The translations under genes and the position numbers were made by a program. This document shows, piece by piece, positions 4,375-16,894 of a stretch of 20,558 bases of DNA. A model generated the notes under the pieces. That model searched no databases. It was not told where the DNA came from and saw only the letters and a list, made by a program, of their open reading frames with translations. Where the stretch lies: IMG/VR virus record IMGVR_UViG_2541047726_000008; one strand, written 5' to 3'. Source of the stretch: a virus. Taxonomy: Duplodnaviria > Heunggongvirae > Uroviricota > Caudoviricetes. Each line of letters starts with the position of its first letter. The stretch's first letter is position 1.

Positions 4375-4932
4375 TCAACAATGAATTTTTAGCAATTGCT
4401 CCACAGTCATATTTTTAATTGCGCTCCGGTTTACAAGAGTCCATCCTTGTTTCTCCAGATAAAACCGGAAGGTATCCAGGGTGCAGACCATTGCGCCGTC
4501 AGGAACGGTTTCAGTGAATTTGATATTGCCGTGTTCGTCGAGACGGATAACCAGGGTGCGTCCGTCCCCGTGAATCATTTTGTCGGGAGACGGGGCGTTA
4601 TTCTGGCGCAGTTCTTCCTCCATGCGATCGAACTCAGCGATGTAGGCTTCTTTGAAAGTTGCGGCTTTTTTACCTGTGAACCCCATCACCAGGAAAACGA
4701 AGCCGTTTTTGGTGATTTGGTACATTGGGAGTTTGCGCCCGGTTGAGTCGGTGTATTCGCTCGACACAAAATTGTGCTCAGTGAATTTTGCTGAACAGTC
4801 CAGATTGCGAATTTTATCCAACACTCGTTCGTGGCGTTTGCCAAAGAACTCGGCGATCGCAACAGACGTAGTGACAGCGCGACCATTTTCGATGGTTACG
4901 TCAGGGTGAGAAAGGGTAAGGATAGTAGCCAT
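4375..4932 (-). CDS. Rha-family phage regulatory protein (antirepressor-like)
   Basis: Track gives a 284-aa ORF from 5229, but residues 1-99 are low complexity. Internal ATG at 4932 is preceded by GGAGG and opens with MATILTLSHPDVTIENGRAVTTSVAIAEFFGKRHERVLDKIRNL, as Rha-domain proteins do (from memory). Re-called as 185 aa. Confidence 0.65.
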   Translation of the reverse strand: MATILTLSHPDVTIENGRAVTTSVAIAEFFGKRHERVLDKIRNLDCSAKFTEHNFVSSEYTDSTGRKLPMYQITKNGFVFLVMGFTGKKAATFKEAYIAEFDRMEEELRQNNAPSPDKMIHGDGRTLVIRLDEHGNIKFTETVPDGAMVCTLDTFRFYLEKQGWTLVNRSAIKNMTVEQLLKIHC

Positions 4933-5101
4933 GATGGCAGCCTCCGCGATGAATTTGATTAACTCACCACCGAGGTTTTCCACGACCATAAGGGTGGTGA
5001 GACGTACAGGGGTGGAAATACCGGTCATCACGGAACCCGGCCAGCCTTGCGGCTGCCCTGCACGCCCCACCATAATGCGAATGTGGCTGTGCTTAACGCA
5101 T

Positions 5102-5124
5102 AAAAAAACCGCCTGAGCGCGGTT
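5102..5124 (-). terminator. Possible weak intrinsic terminator (minus strand)
   Basis: On the minus strand reads AACCGC-GCTCAG-GCGGTT followed by 7 T. Stem is short (4 GC + 2 AT pairs). Lies upstream of the re-called Rha start, supporting the shorter gene model. Confidence 0.3.
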
Positions 5125-5804
5125 ATGCGCCGTGAATGATTTCGGGTTTCCACGCCCGGCACCCGTTTTATGAGGTGCAGGTGCACTATAATTCCACCCG
5201 TTCTGGTTTTCAATAGCTACATTCAACATTTTCTCTTACCTTTCATCACCGAAGTGAACTTTGTTGATGCGGTGCCTGGTGCCTCCAGGTGACGTTAACC
5301 AGTTAACAATTAACGCCGGATACAGAGAATCCACCCATAACACTGTTTTTGGTTTTAACTGTTCCGCGTGCGCTCAGCCGCATTCACCGCATCACAAAAT
5401 TCACTTTAAAAAGGGCGGCAGAGCAGTCACGGAGTAAAACTGATACCGCCAAAAGTCACCAGAAAATTGATAACAGAGGGCGTTGCAGCGGGGTTGTCAC
5501 TTAAGCGTATGGTCAACCTGACAACCCGGTGTCCTCAACGGGGGAAGGAATAACCCCGCCATACTTACCGCCGCGCCATTTCGCGGATTGCCACAACCGG
5601 AAGCGCACGGTCGACGAAAATTTAACGACAGGCTATCTATGAACCAGCTACCTCGCCGTGCGCTTTCGCGTTATGGTCTGACTTTTCAGGGAAATATCCT
5701 TTCAGTAAACTGTCAGTGCCGGATTCTTATCCGTGTCCGGCGCACGACCACACGCTGTCACGAGAGGTCTCCATTCTCAACCAGTAACCTCAATGGAGGA
5801 TAAA

Positions 5805-5999: not shown

Positions 6000-6327
6000 C
6001 ATTTTTTTTACGGCGTTCATATTCGTTAATATTTATGAAGCCTGTTGCCAGAAGCAGTTCGTTAATTTCATGGTTGTTTGGCTGTTTCTGGCTCTTTGAA
6101 CTGGGATCTTCCACTTCTTTTTCTGCAAATTGTTTTGCTGTATCCTCTGTGCCATGGATATTTAAAGCTGTATCTGAAAACAGCCCAGTAAACGCATCGC
6201 GCACATTACGAGCCATATTATCAGTGTCTTTTTTTGTTACCGATTCCAATTCAAGTTCGTTCAGACGATGACGAAGTGTGTGTGCTGCAATCTCCTGGAT
6301 TGAAGGAGGTAAATCTTTAAATTCCAT
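5992..6327 (-). CDS. Hypothetical early-left protein (111 aa)
   Basis: Track ORF starts at 6339; ATG at 6327 (MEFKDLPPSIQEI…) is preceded by GAGG within the 6339 codon context. Charged protein, no motif recognised. Confidence 0.5.
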   Translation of the reverse strand: MEFKDLPPSIQEIAAHTLRHRLNELELESVTKKDTDNMARNVRDAFTGLFSDTALNIHGTEDTAKQFAEKEVEDPSSKSQKQPNNHEINELLLATGFININEYERRKKNVI

Positions 6328-6338
6328 CGTCAACCTCA

Positions 6339-6491
6339 TCAGTCAGTGTTTCTTGCTAACCAGCGATGCGCGCCAGCTGCGGTTTTAAACGTTTTGCTTT
6401 TGGTATACGTCATCGCGGTGAATGTGCCGTCCTGGTTGGGAAACACGCCGTACACCAGAGATTCGTTGTTGCCAAGCTCGATAGTATCCAT
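6339..6491 (-). CDS. Small hypothetical protein (50 aa), first gene after the pL-like promoter
   Basis: Not in the ORF track (<60 aa). Hand translation of the reverse complement gives MDTIELGNNESLVYGVFPNQDGTFTAMTYTKSKTFKTAAGAHRWLARNTD with GAGG 5-6 nt upstream of the ATG at 6491; its stop falls on the 6339 ATG of the next ORF. Confidence 0.4.
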   Translation of the reverse strand: MDTIELGNNESLVYGVFPNQDGTFTAMTYTKSKTFKTAAGAHRWLARNTD

Positions 6492-6562
6492 GCTGACCTC
6501 ATTTCCCCTTAACGCCGGGTGGCGGAACTAAAACCTACAGCGCCGTGCTGTTCTTGATAGAA

Positions 6563-6591
6563 ATATTAGTAACGCGGATATTTTAAGTCAA
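6563..6591 (-). promoter_or_regulatory. pL-like sigma70 promoter (leftward early)
   Basis: Minus strand reads TTGACT (6591..6586), 17-nt spacer, TAATAT (6568..6563). The -10 overlaps an AAATATTAG operator-like motif. Confidence 0.5.
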
Positions 6592-6688
6592 CAGTATGGC
6601 GTATGATATTTTTGATTTGGTAACTATGTAAATGTTTTTTCAAGGGAAAAATATTAGTTATACAGCTGATTTGCAGAAGTTATGGCAC

Positions 6689-6718
6689 AAAAAAACCGAC
6701 TAAGACGTCGGTTTTTTT
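6689..6718 (-). terminator. Bidirectional intrinsic terminator downstream of the repressor gene
   Basis: Stem AACCGAC / GTCGGTT (6694-6700 / 6707-6713) with 6-nt loop, flanked by a 7-A run on one side and a 7-T run on the other. Confidence 0.6.
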
Positions 6719-6744
6719 GTTGTGGATGGGGTAGTGAGCGGTGG

Positions 6745-7206
6745 CTACTGGTTACGTTTCTTTAGTGCCAGCATGTTCTCGAAGGCTTCCTCGTAGAGCT
6801 TGTTTAGTCCACGTAGCTGGTTAAGGAGTTTGGCTTTTTCTGACGCAGGTAGAATCTCGAAGAGGTTAAGTAACTCTGCCTGTTCTTCATTGACCAGCCT
6901 CCATCCTTTGCCTGAAAAGTTATCATCATAAGTATCTGATGATCTTACATAATTCATTAAGTCTTTAAGGTCTTCTCGAATGTCCTCTGGTTTTACCTTT
7001 AACAGAGCCGCAAATTTTAGCGCAGCGTCGGTATTTACCGGTATCTTGCCGTTCAGATACTGGCTAACGGTGCCTTGAGATTCGAATCCCAACAACTCAG
7101 CCGCCAGCTCTTGAGTCAGCTTCAGCTCTTTTTTTCTTGCATTCCATGCGGCTTTTAAATTCTTGCTCGCTTCTGGAGTTGCAATCACTTCGCGTGTTTT
7201 TTTCAT
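6745..7206 (-). CDS. CI-like prophage repressor (XRE-family HTH, no S24 peptidase domain)
   Basis: 153 aa. HTH at residues about 30-50 (LTQELAAELLGFESQGTVSQYLNG). C-terminal about 70 aa has no Ser/Lys autocleavage motif pattern. Divergent from the cro-like gene. No SD before the ATG; predicted promoter places the TSS at or next to the ATG. Confidence 0.8.
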   Translation of the reverse strand: MKKTREVIATPEASKNLKAAWNARKKELKLTQELAAELLGFESQGTVSQYLNGKIPVNTDAALKFAALLKVKPEDIREDLKDLMNYVRSSDTYDDNFSGKGWRLVNEEQAELLNLFEILPASEKAKLLNQLRGLNKLYEEAFENMLALKKRNQ

Positions 7207-7212
7207 ACATAG

Positions 7213-7240
7213 AGTTTATTTGTTTTACCAATATTATCAA
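7213..7240 (-). promoter_or_regulatory. pRM-like promoter for the repressor (leaderless transcript predicted)
   Basis: Minus strand: TTGATA (7240..7235), 16-nt spacer, TAAACT (7218..7213), then 6 nt to the ATG at 7206. Overlaps the palindrome TATCAAAGATA and an AATATT operator-like core. Confidence 0.45.
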
Positions 7241-7254
7241 AGATAGTCTGGCTA

Positions 7255-7283
7255 TTGATCTTTAAAATTAGCGGGGCTAATAT
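7255..7283 (+). promoter_or_regulatory. pR-like promoter for cro-like gene
   Basis: TTGATC (7255-7260), 17-nt spacer, TAATAT (7278-7283). The -10 overlaps an operator-like motif (AAATATTAG on the minus strand, 7277-7285). Confidence 0.55.
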
Positions 7284-7313
7284 TTGCTCGAGGCATAACG
7301 TAGAAGGTTGGCT

Positions 7314-7589
7314 ATGAACTTAAGAGACTATTTAAAAGAGAAACATATTACCCAGCTACAGTTTGGGAAGCTAACGGGTTTATCTCAGGTGCATGTAAGT
7401 CGAGTGCTGGGGGGCTATGAAAGATTCAGCCCTGAAAAAGCATTACGTGTTGCTGAAGTAACGAATTTCGAGGTTACACCTCATGAACTCCGGCCTGATA
7501 TTTACCCGAATCCAACCGACGGCTTACCTGTTGGATTCAAGGCTAACACACCAAATGCATCGGAGTTGATTCATGAAAATCAGGCATGA
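7314..7589 (+). CDS. Cro-like (YdaS-like) HTH DNA-binding protein
   Basis: Track start is TTG at 7308; ATG at 7314 has GAAGG upstream. 91 aa, N-terminal HTH (ITQLQFGKLTGLSQVHVSRVL). Position divergent from the repressor. Confidence 0.7.
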   Translation: MNLRDYLKEKHITQLQFGKLTGLSQVHVSRVLGGYERFSPEKALRVAEVTNFEVTPHELRPDIYPNPTDGLPVGFKANTPNASELIHENQA

Positions 7590-7998
7590 GCACATCCGCA
7601 TGGCGATGAATGCCTGGGCGCATCCGGACGGTGAAAAAGTTCCGGCAGCTGAAATAACCCGGGCTTATTTTGAGCTTGGTATGACGTTCCCGGAATTATA
7701 TGACGACAGCCATCCGGAAGCCCTGGCTCGCAATACCCAGAAAATTTTCCGCTGGGTGGAGAAAGACACTCCTGATGCGGTTAAAAAAATTCAGGCGTTG
7801 TTACCAGCGATCGAAAAAGCAATGCCGCCTCTGCTGGTGGCCCGAATGCGCAGCCACAGTTCAGCTTATTTTCGGGAGCTGGTGGAGACGCGGGAACGAC
7901 TGGTGAGAGACGCTGATGATTTTGTCGCAGTGGCGATCGCTGGTTTCAACCAGATGAATCGCGGTGGCCCTGCAGGAAATATTGTGGCTGTGCATTGA
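7573..7998 (+). CDS. CII/YdaT-like regulatory protein
   Basis: 141 aa, ATG at 7573 with GGAG 7 nt upstream, 17-nt overlap with the cro-like gene. Starts MKIRHEHI…, similar from memory to Rac YdaT / CII-family proteins that follow Cro-like genes. Confidence 0.55.
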   Translation: MKIRHEHIRMAMNAWAHPDGEKVPAAEITRAYFELGMTFPELYDDSHPEALARNTQKIFRWVEKDTPDAVKKIQALLPAIEKAMPPLLVARMRSHSSAYFRELVETRERLVRDADDFVAVAIAGFNQMNRGGPAGNIVAVH

Positions 7999-12881: not shown

Positions 12882-13100
12882 GTGCCTACATTATTCAGAA
12901 AAGAATATCCGCGAAAAAGTAGAGCGACAGAATTTTTGTTTCTCATTCTGTTTATCGTGTTGATGATACCGATATCCCCGTTAATTCTGGTATGGGGAAT
13001 CGGAAAAATAATTGAGCCAGTTATTGAATTGTATAACGACGTGGTATGGGCTCCGTTCAACACACTGCACAATAAAATTAATCCGTATAAGGAAAACTGA
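12882..13100 (+). CDS. Small membrane protein (one predicted TM helix)
   Basis: GTG start at 12882 with AGGAGAG 4 nt upstream. Hydrophobic segment FLFLILFIVLMIPISPLILVWGIG flanked by basic residues. Confidence 0.45.
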   Translation: MPTLFRKEYPRKSRATEFLFLILFIVLMIPISPLILVWGIGKIIEPVIELYNDVVWAPFNTLHNKINPYKEN

Positions 13101-13999: not shown

Positions 14000-14039
14000 T
14001 GCAGCGGGTGCTTGAGGCTATCTGTCTCAGGCATGAACA

Positions 14040-14130
14040 CCAAAAGGCAGATAGAGAAAAGCCCCAGTTAACATTACGCGTCCGGCAAGACGCTTAACAT
14101 TAATCTGAGGCCATATCTATGCTCTACACA
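14040..14130 (-). ncRNA. Putative Sok-like antisense RNA (approximate)
   Basis: Inferred from hok-family architecture. Candidate minus-strand promoter TTGCCT (14162..14157), 17 nt, TAACCT (14139..14134) would drive an antisense RNA across the upstream-ORF initiation region. The -10 is weak and the ends are not defined. Confidence 0.3.
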
Positions 14131-14175
14131 CGTAGGTTAGCCTCTTACGTGCCGAAAGGCAAGGAGAAGCAGGCT

Positions 14176-14331
14176 ATGAAGCAGCAAAAGGCGATGCTAA
14201 TCGCCCTGATCGTCATCTGTTTAACCGTCATTGTGACGGCACTGGTAACGAGGAAAGACCTCTGCGAGGTACGAATCCGAACCGGCCAGACGGAGGTCGC
14301 TGTCTTCACAGCTTACGAACCTGAGGAGTAA
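14176..14331 (+). CDS. hok: Hok/Gef-family type I toxin
   Basis: 51 aa, MKQQKAMLIALIVICLTVIVTALVTRKDLCEVRIRTGQTEVAVFTAYEPEE, matching the Hok pattern (…CLT…TRK.LCE.R…G..EVAAF.AYE). AAGGAG 9 nt upstream. An in-frame upstream ATG at 14119 with its own SD extends the frame by 19 codons (mok-like leader ORF). Confidence 0.8.
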   Translation: MKQQKAMLIALIVICLTVIVTALVTRKDLCEVRIRTGQTEVAVFTAYEPEE

Positions 14332-14496: not shown

Positions 14497-15147
14497 ATGA
14501 ATGAAAATCAGTTAGCTCCTTGTTGGGAATTTCAACCTTATCTTGCTGAAAACTATGTTCGCCACTTGTTGGCGGAGATCGCTAACGTACTTGAGCAGCT
14601 GTACTATCATAAGCACGCATTAGACAGCAACTGGTCTGAAGGTGTAAGGGCTTATGATTGGGTCAGAAATCATCTTATTCAAAATGAAGATGCAATTCCT
14701 GGCCTTGAGATGATTTCCAAGGGGTTGGACTATGTAGTTGCTTTAAATAAAGTTCCGCTACAATTTACCAAAGATTGCATTAATAACCCCAAAAAGAAAC
14801 ATCGTCTGCGTCGAAATAAAGTAGAGTATGAGCAGCTCTCATTGTTTGGTGATGTTGAGGCTGAGCAAGATATTACATGGCGAGTCATAGCTGAGCCTTT
14901 TTTATCCGAAGAGGGCGATGGTGAATTAGAGTCCACACTGCCTCGTTGGGAGGTAGCTCTTGTTGGATTTAATACTTATGGTGCTCAGATTAGTATAGTT
15001 TCTCATCAATCTACAGCATCGATGCCGCTTATGCCTCTTGATTATAACACACTCCCTGACGAAGCGGAGATTAATAAGGTGCCTCTTCGTCGGCGTACGA
15101 AGGATAAAGATTTGGATGTGAGCAGTGATGGAACATCAGGTGAATAA
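14497..15147 (+). CDS. Hypothetical protein (216 aa), first gene of the cargo cassette
   Basis: ATG at 14497 without a clear SD. Visibly AT-rich coding sequence (about one third GC by eye in the first 60 nt). No motif recognised. Its last 20 nt overlap the next gene. Confidence 0.6.
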   Translation: MNENQLAPCWEFQPYLAENYVRHLLAEIANVLEQLYYHKHALDSNWSEGVRAYDWVRNHLIQNEDAIPGLEMISKGLDYVVALNKVPLQFTKDCINNPKKKHRLRRNKVEYEQLSLFGDVEAEQDITWRVIAEPFLSEEGDGELESTLPRWEVALVGFNTYGAQISIVSHQSTASMPLMPLDYNTLPDEAEINKVPLRRRTKDKDLDVSSDGTSGE

Positions 15148-16231
15148 CTTCACTGAGTATCGGGGTGATAAGCTCAAACTAGCGAGAATGGCTGTTGGGC
15201 TTTCTTGTGAAGAGTTAGCCGAAAAAATTGGCAAGACAAAGCAATTCGTTAGCAAACTGGAGAAGGGGTGCAGGCCATCGGAGCAATGTCTTGAGTTAAT
15301 ATCTTCAGCGCTTATGATTAAGTCCAGTTTTCTTTTTACTGAACGAAAATACGCTCTGGAAAGTGATGTCTGCCATTTTCGGAGTAAGAAGTCCAGGACT
15401 CAAACGCTGACTAATAGTGTATTGGCCAGGGCTGAGATTCTTAATATTATAATTTCTGCTGTTGAAGGTGAAATCGAATTTCCTGACGTTAACATACCGG
15501 AGCACCCAGGGGCTGAATTACTTACTCCGAATGATATTGAGCGAGTGGCAGAAGATTGTCGCCGTGCCTGGAATTTAGGTCTTGGCCCTATATCATCAAT
15601 GGTTAAATTGGCGGAGAGTTTAGGGGTAATCGTTGCGCATGTTACGGGAGTCGATGATCGTGTTGATGCTTTTACTGTTCACAATAACAGGCCTGTTATC
15701 ATCAGGAACAATGTTAAAAAAAGCATATGTAGATTTCGCTCTGATTTAGGTCATGAATTAGGGCATTTAGTAATGCATGAGGGCATAACGACAGGTGATA
15801 AACTTACGGAATCACAAGCCGATCACTTTTCGAGCGCCTTATTAGTTCCCAGGTTATCTTTCATTAAAGAATTTCCACGAATACGAGGTAAGCAATTCGA
15901 CTGGAATGCTCTGGTTGAATTTAAACTTAGATGGAAAATCAGCCTTAAAATGTGTATTTATCGAGCCAGCGCATTAGGCTTATTGACCCAGGAACAGGCA
16001 AGAACTGGCTATATGCATCTTAATTCCAGAGGGTATACGAGAGTTGAACCTGGTGATGAACTTTTGCGCCCTGAAGAACCCGGCATGCTGGCCGAGGCGA
16101 TTGAAATGCTGGATGATGCAACCTGGCTAAGAATTCTTATGAAAACTGGCTTGAGCCAAGATTTAATTCGTGAGTTGTTCTCCATCAACAGACCTATTAC
16201 AAATCCAAGAAATATTTTCCAGATTGTTTGA
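15128..16231 (+). CDS. Fused XRE-family HTH / ImmA(IrrE)-type zinc metallopeptidase
   Basis: Track start is GTG 15125; ATG at 15128. 367 aa. N-terminal HTH (LKLARMAVGLSCEELAEKIGKTKQFVSKLEKG) and central HEXXH motif in an ImmA/IrrE-like context (…FRSDLGHELGHLVMHEG…). Confidence 0.8.
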   Translation: MEHQVNNFTEYRGDKLKLARMAVGLSCEELAEKIGKTKQFVSKLEKGCRPSEQCLELISSALMIKSSFLFTERKYALESDVCHFRSKKSRTQTLTNSVLARAEILNIIISAVEGEIEFPDVNIPEHPGAELLTPNDIERVAEDCRRAWNLGLGPISSMVKLAESLGVIVAHVTGVDDRVDAFTVHNNRPVIIRNNVKKSICRFRSDLGHELGHLVMHEGITTGDKLTESQADHFSSALLVPRLSFIKEFPRIRGKQFDWNALVEFKLRWKISLKMCIYRASALGLLTQEQARTGYMHLNSRGYTRVEPGDELLRPEEPGMLAEAIEMLDDATWLRILMKTGLSQDLIRELFSINRPITNPRNIFQIV

Positions 16232-16340: not shown

Positions 16341-16562
16341 ATGGACCCCGAACAGGGGGAGTGCTATTTATCTGGAAGGATTCTGTTGATGAAAATCGAA
16401 GAATTACGTGAAATTTTTAGTGAAGATGGCCTCTATGCTGTGCGCGTTGAGAATGGGGGTATTACCTACACAGCGTTAATTCCTGATGATCATGTAGTGT
16501 TATCTGTTGAGGCATTCATTGAATACTTGGAAAGACTCGGTTTCAAGGTAGTTCGGGAATAA
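16341..16562 (+). CDS. Hypothetical protein (73 aa; alternative start 16389)
   Basis: ATG at 16341 with AGGGAG upstream; an internal ATG at 16389 (MKIEELREIF…) also has GGAAGGA upstream. No motif recognised. Confidence 0.45.
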   Translation: MDPEQGECYLSGRILLMKIEELREIFSEDGLYAVRVENGGITYTALIPDDHVVLSVEAFIEYLERLGFKVVRE

Positions 16563-16621: not shown

Positions 16622-16894
16622 ATGGCGCATAATTTCAAATTTCGCAATTCTGATTCTGCCTTTGCCAGCAGGCACGGGTGGCGTTCTCACGCATTCAAAT
16701 ATGACTGGTATCAGCACGATCCCTGTACTGAAGAACAGGCCGAATGGCTGATTCATAACTACCGCAGACGTGGATATGAGTTTAGGAAAGCCCTCACCCT
16801 CGATTATCGTCACTGGATAATCTACGTCAGACTCCCTTATTCCGAACGCCCACCGCGTCCGTCCCGCACATTCCAGCAACGCATCTGGAGGTAA
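16622..16894 (+). CDS. Hypothetical protein (90 aa), possibly Rem-like
   Basis: Track start is TTG 16610; ATG at 16622 has GGAG 6 nt upstream. Basic, Trp/Tyr-rich. Position just upstream of the DUF968-like gene resembles the rem-ydfU arrangement of E. coli Qin as recalled. Confidence 0.45.
   Translation: MAHNFKFRNSDSAFASRHGWRSHAFKYDWYQHDPCTEEQAEWLIHNYRRRGYEFRKALTLDYRHWIIYVRLPYSERPPRPSRTFQQRIWR

Follow-up and report, generated by a model that had tools for sequence, protein, structure and literature searches.

The stretch of DNA analysed here, the 20,558 nucleotides of IMG/VR virus record IMGVR_UViG_2541047726_000008 (Caudoviricetes; hereafter the window), carries a leftward gene for a 153-residue repressor opposite a divergent cro-like gene, with a pRM-like and a pR-like promoter between the two and a pL-like promoter on the far side of the repressor gene (Table 1). 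Operators are predicted at both control regions, and the arrangement agrees with an earlier note on this DNA that had read it as a lambda-like immunity switch. The whole window is contained in a full-length lambdoid prophage adjoining ompW in Escherichia coli NCTC86, and its 1.4-kb switch region shows 97% DNA identity with phage Rac-SA53, where the two switch genes are annotated dicA and dicC. Judged from sequence comparison, the region is probably the immunity switch of a full-length E. coli lambdoid prophage of the Qin, Rac and CP-933P kind. It is a new immunity type, but the class is well described and the switch of a familiar kind, and it leaves the general picture of lambdoid switches unchanged; what it adds to the class of short, non-cleavable repressors is a defined immunity type with a stated operator, promoter layout and candidate antirepressors.

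Table 1. Predicted features of the immunity region and of related loci in the window. Operator scores (n/12) are matches out of the 12 half-site positions of the model TATTAG-N5-CTAATA.
Feature	Position	Strand	Description
Repressor gene	6745..7206	-	153 aa; lambda-CI-like N-terminal domain at about residues 11-89, DicA-type C-terminal helical module at about 105-152
pRM-like promoter	7213..7240	-	Sigma-70-like, from promoter scan; -35 TTGATA 7240-7235, 16-nt spacer, -10 TAAACT 7218-7213
pR-like promoter	7255..7283	+	TTGATC 7255-7260, 17-nt spacer, TAATAT 7278-7283
pL-like promoter	6563..6591	-	From promoter scan; TTGACT 6591-6586, 17-nt spacer, TAATAT 6568-6563
OR1	7266..7282		AATTAG-CGGGG-CTAATA, 11/12; covers pR -10 and spacer; holds motif copy 7277-7285
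OR3	7217..7233		TATTTG-TTTTA-CCAATA, 10/12; covers pRM spacer and runs 2 nt into its -10
OL1	6564..6580		TATTAG-TAACG-CGGATA, 10/12; overlaps pL -10 and spacer
Weak OR2 candidate	7241..7257		AGATAG-TCTGG-CTATTG, 7/12; lambda-like spacing to OR1 (25 bp) and OR3 (24 bp)
Alternative OR2 candidate	7232..7248		TATTAT-CAAAG-ATAGTC, 8/12
Distal OL site	6652..6668		Perfect TATTAG half (motif copy 6649-6657) with poor partner, 8/12
Bidirectional terminator	6687..6720		Perfect 14-bp hairpin flanked by A/T runs; 3' of repressor gene
Cro-like gene	7314..7589	+	91 aa, YdaS-family HTH; Pfam YdaS_toxin and HTH_3, PHROG 35
CII-like ydaT	7573..7998	+	141 aa; Pfam YdaT_toxin; PHROG 163, CII-like activator
YdaT box	7566..7583		TTGATTCATGAAAATCAG; 1 mismatch to TTGATT-N6-AATCAA; end of cro-like gene
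ydfA (DUF1391)	6339..6491	-	First gene of leftward operon; Pfam E 7e-28
DicF	5413-5464	-	Upstream of Rha ORF in same leftward operon
Ash+Rha protein	4375..5229	-	284 aa, AnrP-like; Pfam and PHROG antirepressor families; second antirepressor candidate
isrK	5102-5178	-	In 5' (Ash-domain) part of Rha ORF; Rfam, above gathering score
C4 antisense RNA	4990-5077	-	In 5' (Ash-domain) part of Rha ORF; Rfam, above gathering score
RosmerTA-type defence pair RmrT + RmrA	14497-16231	+	RmrT 216 aa, E 5e-25, upstream; pair between hok/sok and Rem-like ORF
RmrA, HTH + M78 fusion	15125-16231	+	PADLOC E 6e-105
Rem-like ORF	16389..16562	+	57 aa, candidate antirepressor; in open reading frame list only as a 73-aa ORF from 16341

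The two halves of the repressor have different affinities. Residues 12-78 match the N-terminal domain of lambda repressor (phmmer against the PDB, E 3e-4), with the basic N-terminal arm taken into the match, and Foldseek aligns the AlphaFold model with 1lmb at a target-normalised TM-score of 0.77 (rmsd 2.3 A over 79 alignment columns), the scores to lambda-type repressor N-terminal domains being 0.75-0.83. The earlier note had described an N-terminal HTH without a LexA/S24-like C-terminal domain, and this holds: over the 153 residues Pfam recognises HTH_3/HTH_31 alone (residues 23-77), with S24 absent; the AlphaFold model is helical throughout, its C-terminal 60 residues included; and the sequence has no Ala-Gly or Cys-Gly dipeptide and hence no cleavage site of that sort. 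Homology to DicA covers the final 42-49 residues, which align with its C-terminus (38% identity, E 8e-6). When the C-terminal region is compared with DicA-type proteins in a 7-protein database, identities of 34-39% over 47-49 aa are obtained (E 1e-10 to 2e-7), and an ELLxxFxxxPxxE motif near the C-terminus is common to this repressor and PaaR2. Over the whole protein, BLAST gives no significant similarity to PaaR2, the NCBIfam DicA model (NF007257) scores 35.1 bits against a cutoff of 101 and so falls below threshold, and homology to RacR was rejected, the best BLASTP match to K-12 RacR having E = 26.

Database relatives of the repressor come in two sets. One consists of full-length 153-aa proteins, 58-93% identical, in Enterobacter, Hafnia and Serratia; the other has only the N-terminal half in common and carries an S24 peptidase domain (PF00717) in place of the C-terminus. 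Since relatives exist in which the same N-terminal domain is fused to S24, the missing cleavage domain is real and the product of a domain swap. By these comparisons the repressor is a chimera of a lambda-CI-like N-terminal domain and a DicA C-terminal helical module. A lambda-type DNA-binding domain can thus be joined to a DicA-type C-terminal module, and the domain combination is useful for predicting which prophages are SOS-responsive and which depend on an antirepressor.

The -10 hexamer of the pRM-like promoter ends 6 nt before the repressor ATG at 7206, there is no Shine-Dalgarno sequence, and the predicted transcription start is the A of that ATG. About 100 related loci were fetched from viral and metagenome contigs (a scan of genome contigs gave only three), and a TAnnnT hexamer, in one of the four forms TAAACT, TAAGAT, TAAAAT and TAGAAT, precedes the repressor ATG by exactly 6 nt in every one of the 101 loci; the 6-nt gap itself differs in sequence among lineages. 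Lambda PRM has this same geometry. The repressor mRNA is very probably leaderless, as the earlier note had predicted; transcription from pRM starting at the A of the ATG would yield a message like those of lambda cI, paaR2 and racR. The pL-like promoter matches dicBp-ydfA of Qin in layout. The promoter scan used a threshold of 9/12 consensus positions, and the pR-like promoter, at 8/12, falls below it and was read by eye and from the same layout in relatives; its -10, TAATAT, is shared by PydaST of K-12 Rac (PMC11879457).

Two further observations concern the pL side. Between OL1 and the distal half-site lies a second leftward promoter-like site, TTTACA-18-TATCAT (6603-6632, minus strand, 10/12), whose -10 is polymorphic among relatives. 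The pL leader (6492-6556, minus strand) hardly varies from one repressor group to another, although these groups are only 70% identical, and it is similar to the Qin dicBp leader. A structured RNA in this leader was rejected, its fold being no more stable than those of shuffled sequences (z = +1.26), and an Rfam scan of 6300-7400 gave nothing at E <= 0.01. At 6484-6495 the first gene after the leader varies (ydfA or others) among otherwise near-identical immunity regions, and this is a mosaic recombination junction at the start codon.

The earlier note had drawn attention to a repeated motif, AAATATTAG, which occurs at 6561-6569 and 6649-6657 on the plus strand and at 7277-7285 on the minus strand, all within the two control regions. 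Three exact matches in the window compare with 0.17 expected, and none of 100 shuffles reached three. A wider search, through 49 kb of the near-identical NCTC86 prophage and its flank, found no further copy. The copy at 7277-7285 overlaps the pR-like -10 as claimed; of the two that had been placed at the pL-like -10, the one at 6561-6569 belongs there, but 6649-6657 is found another 88 bp upstream, where no -35 is convincing. The variant CCAATATTATC, located at 7228-7238, does overlap the pRM-like -35, by 4 nt, and would consist of CCAATA (7228-7233), the outer half of OR3, and directly next to it a possible additional half-site.

That the copies are OL and OR half-sites is supported by a scan for 17-mers and by the relatives, with a different reading of the symmetry. 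A lambda-type DNA-binding domain suggested a 17-bp site as the scan model, which was built from the window alone. Four 17-mers in the window score at least 10/12, against 0.88 expected; three of them, OR1, OR3 and OL1, are in the control regions, and the fourth, at 13086, is probably a chance match. The same four 17-mers and no others are found in the 49 kb of the NCTC86 prophage. The operator is accordingly modelled as 6+5+6 bp, with the dyad in a variable 5-bp centre. The palindromic AATATT that the earlier note had taken for the core was rejected as the operator dyad: the dyad falls in the 5-bp centre, 11 bp in from the motif's outer end, with symmetry centres at 7274, 7225 and 6572, and in the original 9-mer three A's flank the outer 6 bp that belong to a half-site. 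A 23-bp operator based on the full 9-mer was rejected as well, since conservation in relatives extends to no more than the inner 6 bp of each half, and the 17-mer framing was therefore retained. Candidates for OR2, OL2 and OL3 score only 7-8/12 and lack conservation, and none was adopted. The distal OL site is conserved inside the E. coli-type group of loci, and no equivalent of it was found in the six diverged relatives considered next.

These relatives are six lineages with repressors 50-70% identical to this one. In them, 16 of 20 sites scoring at least 9/12 fall in the control regions, which make up 7-11% of each locus. A site equivalent to OR1, at 9/12 or better, is present in all six, its centre 66-67 bp upstream of the ATG; an OR3 equivalent is centred 19 bp upstream of the ATG, also in all six, scoring at least 9/12 in four and 8/12 in two; and an OL1 equivalent is centred 153-161 bp past the repressor stop in five, the sixth (L104) having its best site 86 bp downstream. 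The family-wide half-site consensus is roughly (T/A)AT(T/G)A(G/A). Repressor dimers would bind such 17-bp operators through TATTAG-type half-sites, with a 5-bp centre that need not be conserved. At pR and pL, repressor bound to OR1 and OL1 would overlie -10 and spacer alike and turn off both early operons, and binding at OR3, over the spacer and the edge of the -10 of pRM, would provide negative autoregulation.

DicA, PaaR2 and the Gifsy repressors have no self-cleavage site or motif. By its size, domains, gene layout and predicted operators, the present repressor appears to fit this short, non-cleavable class. The likeness to DicA/DicC/dicBp of Qin in K-12 includes a short repressor lacking a cleavage site and divergent from a cro-like gene, the homologous C-terminal module, a leftward promoter whose operator sits between -35 and -10 and which drives ydfA...dicF...dicB, and Rem (here the Rem-like ORF) in the same gene-order position. 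The differences are the operator, TATTAG-N5-CTAATA here and TTGTTAG-N6-CTAACAA in Qin (where the DicA operator is Oc; PMC3441716), a DicA NCBIfam score far under the cutoff, and a different C-terminus of the Rem-like protein. With PaaR2/YdaS/YdaT of CP-933P in E. coli O157:H7 the locus shares gene order, a non-cleavable repressor, a 95% identical YdaT and the position of the YdaT box (PMC9986795). The leaderless paaR2 mRNA has been mapped and the OR/OL operators shown in CP-933P (PMC8630535), whereas here both are predicted. Unlike CP-933P, the locus has no paaA2-parE2 pair 3' of the repressor, and the N-terminal domain and operator sequence differ, CP-933P having GTTTAGTAA repeats.

With lambda CI/Cro the locus shares the fold and sequence of the DNA-binding domain, a 17-bp operator (half-site TATTAG here, TATCAC in lambda), an OR1-OR3 spacing of 49 bp (47 bp in lambda) and a -10 hexamer 6 nt before the ATG. 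It departs from lambda in having no S24 C-terminal domain, no clear OR2, OL2 or OL3, and a monocistronic repressor gene with its own terminator. The layout of RacR/YdaS/YdaT in the Rac prophage of K-12 is also alike, with a mapped leaderless repressor promoter, operators that are 6-bp inverted repeats, and TAATAT as the pR -10 (PMC9638921, PMC11879457); there is no detectable similarity between the repressors, and the Rac operator is TAGGC-N3-GCCTA. The Gifsy systems (GfoR/GftR with antirepressors GfoA/GftA) are alike by class in combining a short non-cleaved repressor with antirepressors encoded elsewhere in the prophage (PMC3121763), and Gifsy-1 further shares an isrK element upstream of a Rha/AnrP-type gene (PMC4825925). 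The LexA-controlled dinI-antirepressor unit of Gifsy has no counterpart found in the window.

Because the repressor has no self-cleavage domain, RecA-stimulated autocleavage is not expected, in agreement with the earlier note, and going by its class it would not be cleaved in the SOS response. Derepression in this class could proceed via a stochastic flip of the repressor/Cro switch or via an antirepressor. Gifsy repressors stay uncleaved on induction and are inactivated by LexA-controlled antirepressors (PMC3121763), and DicA is inactivated by the antirepressor Rem (PMC10448788). By analogy with these systems, the best antirepressor candidates would be two. One is the 57-aa Rem-like ORF, missed in the earlier note, which over its N-terminal 25 residues has 76% identity with K-12 Rem, with a different C-terminus, and which stands where Rem does in the series hokD, rem, DUF968, Q. 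This Rem-like variant occurs with the present repressor family in 35 of 40 loci with a visible immunity region, even where the intervening genes have been replaced, and other Rem types occur with it in 0 of 8, a pattern suggestive of a link between variant and repressor family. The other candidate is the isrK/C4-associated, AnrP-like Rha protein, which the earlier note had proposed and which is reasonable in view of its Gifsy-1-like module. In the isrK-orf45-anrP module of Gifsy-1, expression of isrK or anrP raises antQ-operon transcripts (PMC4825925); the 284-aa Rha ORF here may be a fused orf45-anrP, or its 5' end may be over-called. Exact CTGT-N8-ACAG LexA-box cores are present in the window at 6168-6183, 15675-15690 and 16723-16738, all within coding regions (three seen, 0.28 expected; 1 of 100 shuffles reached three). 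LexA control of the candidates was rejected, as all three cores are intragenic and none is upstream of an antirepressor candidate.

The recurrence of AAATATTAG might also be mere shared promoter context, the TAATAT -10 hexamers of pL and pR with their flanks, the repressor binding elsewhere; two of the three copies do read CTAATATTT on the transcribed strand, with TAATAT as the -10 of pL and of pR. The third copy, however, has no promoter. The partner half-sites, placed within promoter spacers and always 5 bp away, are conserved despite a variable centre, OR3 fits the 17-mer though its half-sites are not the -10 of an outward promoter, and the 17-mer model gives positionally homologous sites in the six diverged relatives, all of which makes shared promoter context a very unlikely explanation. 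Several points do weigh against the switch, its operators and its antirepressors as described. At OR1 and OL1 the strong half-sites fall on the -10 hexamer TAATAT, and part of their conservation is therefore promoter conservation. Neither OR2 candidate is kept across relatives, which leaves no consistent OR2 assignment; the C-terminal half of the AlphaFold model is of low confidence; and a literature search on this repressor family found no paper and no binding, transcript or induction experiment. On the induction side, the Rem-like variant is found with other repressors, including PaaR2-, RacR- and S24-type, in 5 of 40 loci, exceptions on which a strict linkage of Rem variant to repressor type was rejected. 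In the window scan no LexA box precedes the Rem-like ORF or the Rha gene. The Rha gene sits inside the repressed pL operon; unless isrK has an independent promoter, positive feedback therefore suits it better than a triggering role.

The switch might instead have no dedicated inducer and be thrown by a stochastic flip, or by stress that shifts the repressor/Cro balance or, via host proteases, alters how stable the repressor is, as for Qin and CP-933P, leaving the small ORF and the Rha protein irrelevant. The dicBp promoter of Qin turns on spontaneously and with urea or heat, independent of Rem and RecA, and Qin flips spontaneously without responding to mitomycin C (PMC10448788); CP-933P, whose expression is bistable, likewise flips spontaneously and is unresponsive to mitomycin C (PMC8630535); and neither candidate here has a LexA box upstream. 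We nevertheless consider a switch with no dedicated inducer somewhat unlikely, given that Rem, when expressed, derepresses dicBp 165-fold (PMC10448788), that the Rem-like variant travels with this repressor family across otherwise reshuffled prophages, and that a full-length prophage is expected to have an induction route. A third proposal is the HTH-ImmA fusion named in the earlier note. The fusion does have M78 (ImmA/IrrE-type) and HTH domains and might cut the repressor as ImmA cuts ImmR in ICEBs1, but it matches RmrA over its full length, with RmrT immediately upstream, and the pair belongs to the accessory region next to hok/sok, where it separates hok from the Rem-like ORF; in Qin, hokD and rem are adjacent. 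It is the only M78 protein in the window, about 8 kb from the repressor, with no cognate M78 protease beside the repressor. A role for the fusion as repressor protease is scarcely credible, and it was rejected in favour of its identification as RmrA of a RosmerTA pair.

The bases between the half-sites behave differently from the half-sites themselves. Across the E. coli-type group the 5-bp centres of OR1 and OL1 are hypervariable, in contrast to half-sites that hardly vary. Nucleotide diversity (pi), computed over 62 E. coli-type loci from a non-random sample of contigs, is 0.22 in the OR1 centre (7272-7276) and 0.18 in the OL1 centre (6570-6574), as against 0.020 at 105 four-fold degenerate sites in flanking genes, 0.029 over all intergenic positions, 0.011-0.026 in the OR1 and OL1 half-sites (0.026 in the OL1 right half) and 0-0.005 in OR3. 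The centres are thus about 10 times as diverse as four-fold degenerate sites (loci L003-L094). Apart from the mosaic junction at the left edge they are the most haplotype-diverse 5-mers of 6485-7331, with 12 haplotypes for OR1 and 11 for OL1 among 46 distinct sequences, and identical 459-nt repressor alleles are paired with two or three centre haplotypes. Diversifying selection on the centres is a tentative and quite doubtful reading; if true, operator strength, and so the induction threshold or cross-immunity, would be rapidly tuned via bases that the repressor need not read. A duller explanation is that the diversity could reflect a transition hotspot at CG dinucleotides, and the centre changes are mostly transitions, several of them at CG.

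The 1.4-kb switch region is carried by 152 of 5,426 complete E. coli genomes (about 3%), counting those in which at least 80% of the query is present, and carriers of this immunity type include NCTC86, ABU 83972 and 042. The leftward part of the NCTC86 prophage has the gene order int, xis, exonuclease, dicB, Rha, ydfC, ydfB, ydfA, and the window has a 115-aa ORF where that prophage has ydfB and ydfC. The order continues with the repressor, the cro-like gene (a pseudogene in NCTC86), ydaT, replication genes, hok, DUF968, RusA, Q, and lysis and head genes. DicF and dicB lie further along the pL operon, and by controlling these cell-division inhibitors the switch would, through its state, affect host physiology.

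Among the neighbouring genes, YdaT is the one 95% identical to the YdaT encoded beside a PaaR2-type repressor (locus L152). The match to a YdaT box at the end of the cro-like gene is not significant by count alone; the footprinted OM site of CP-933P has the same position, at the end of the cro-like gene (PMC9986795). A hok/sok type I toxin-antitoxin locus occupies 14006-14331 on the plus strand, with sok scoring 117 bits in Rfam and a hok-like ORF at 14119-14331.

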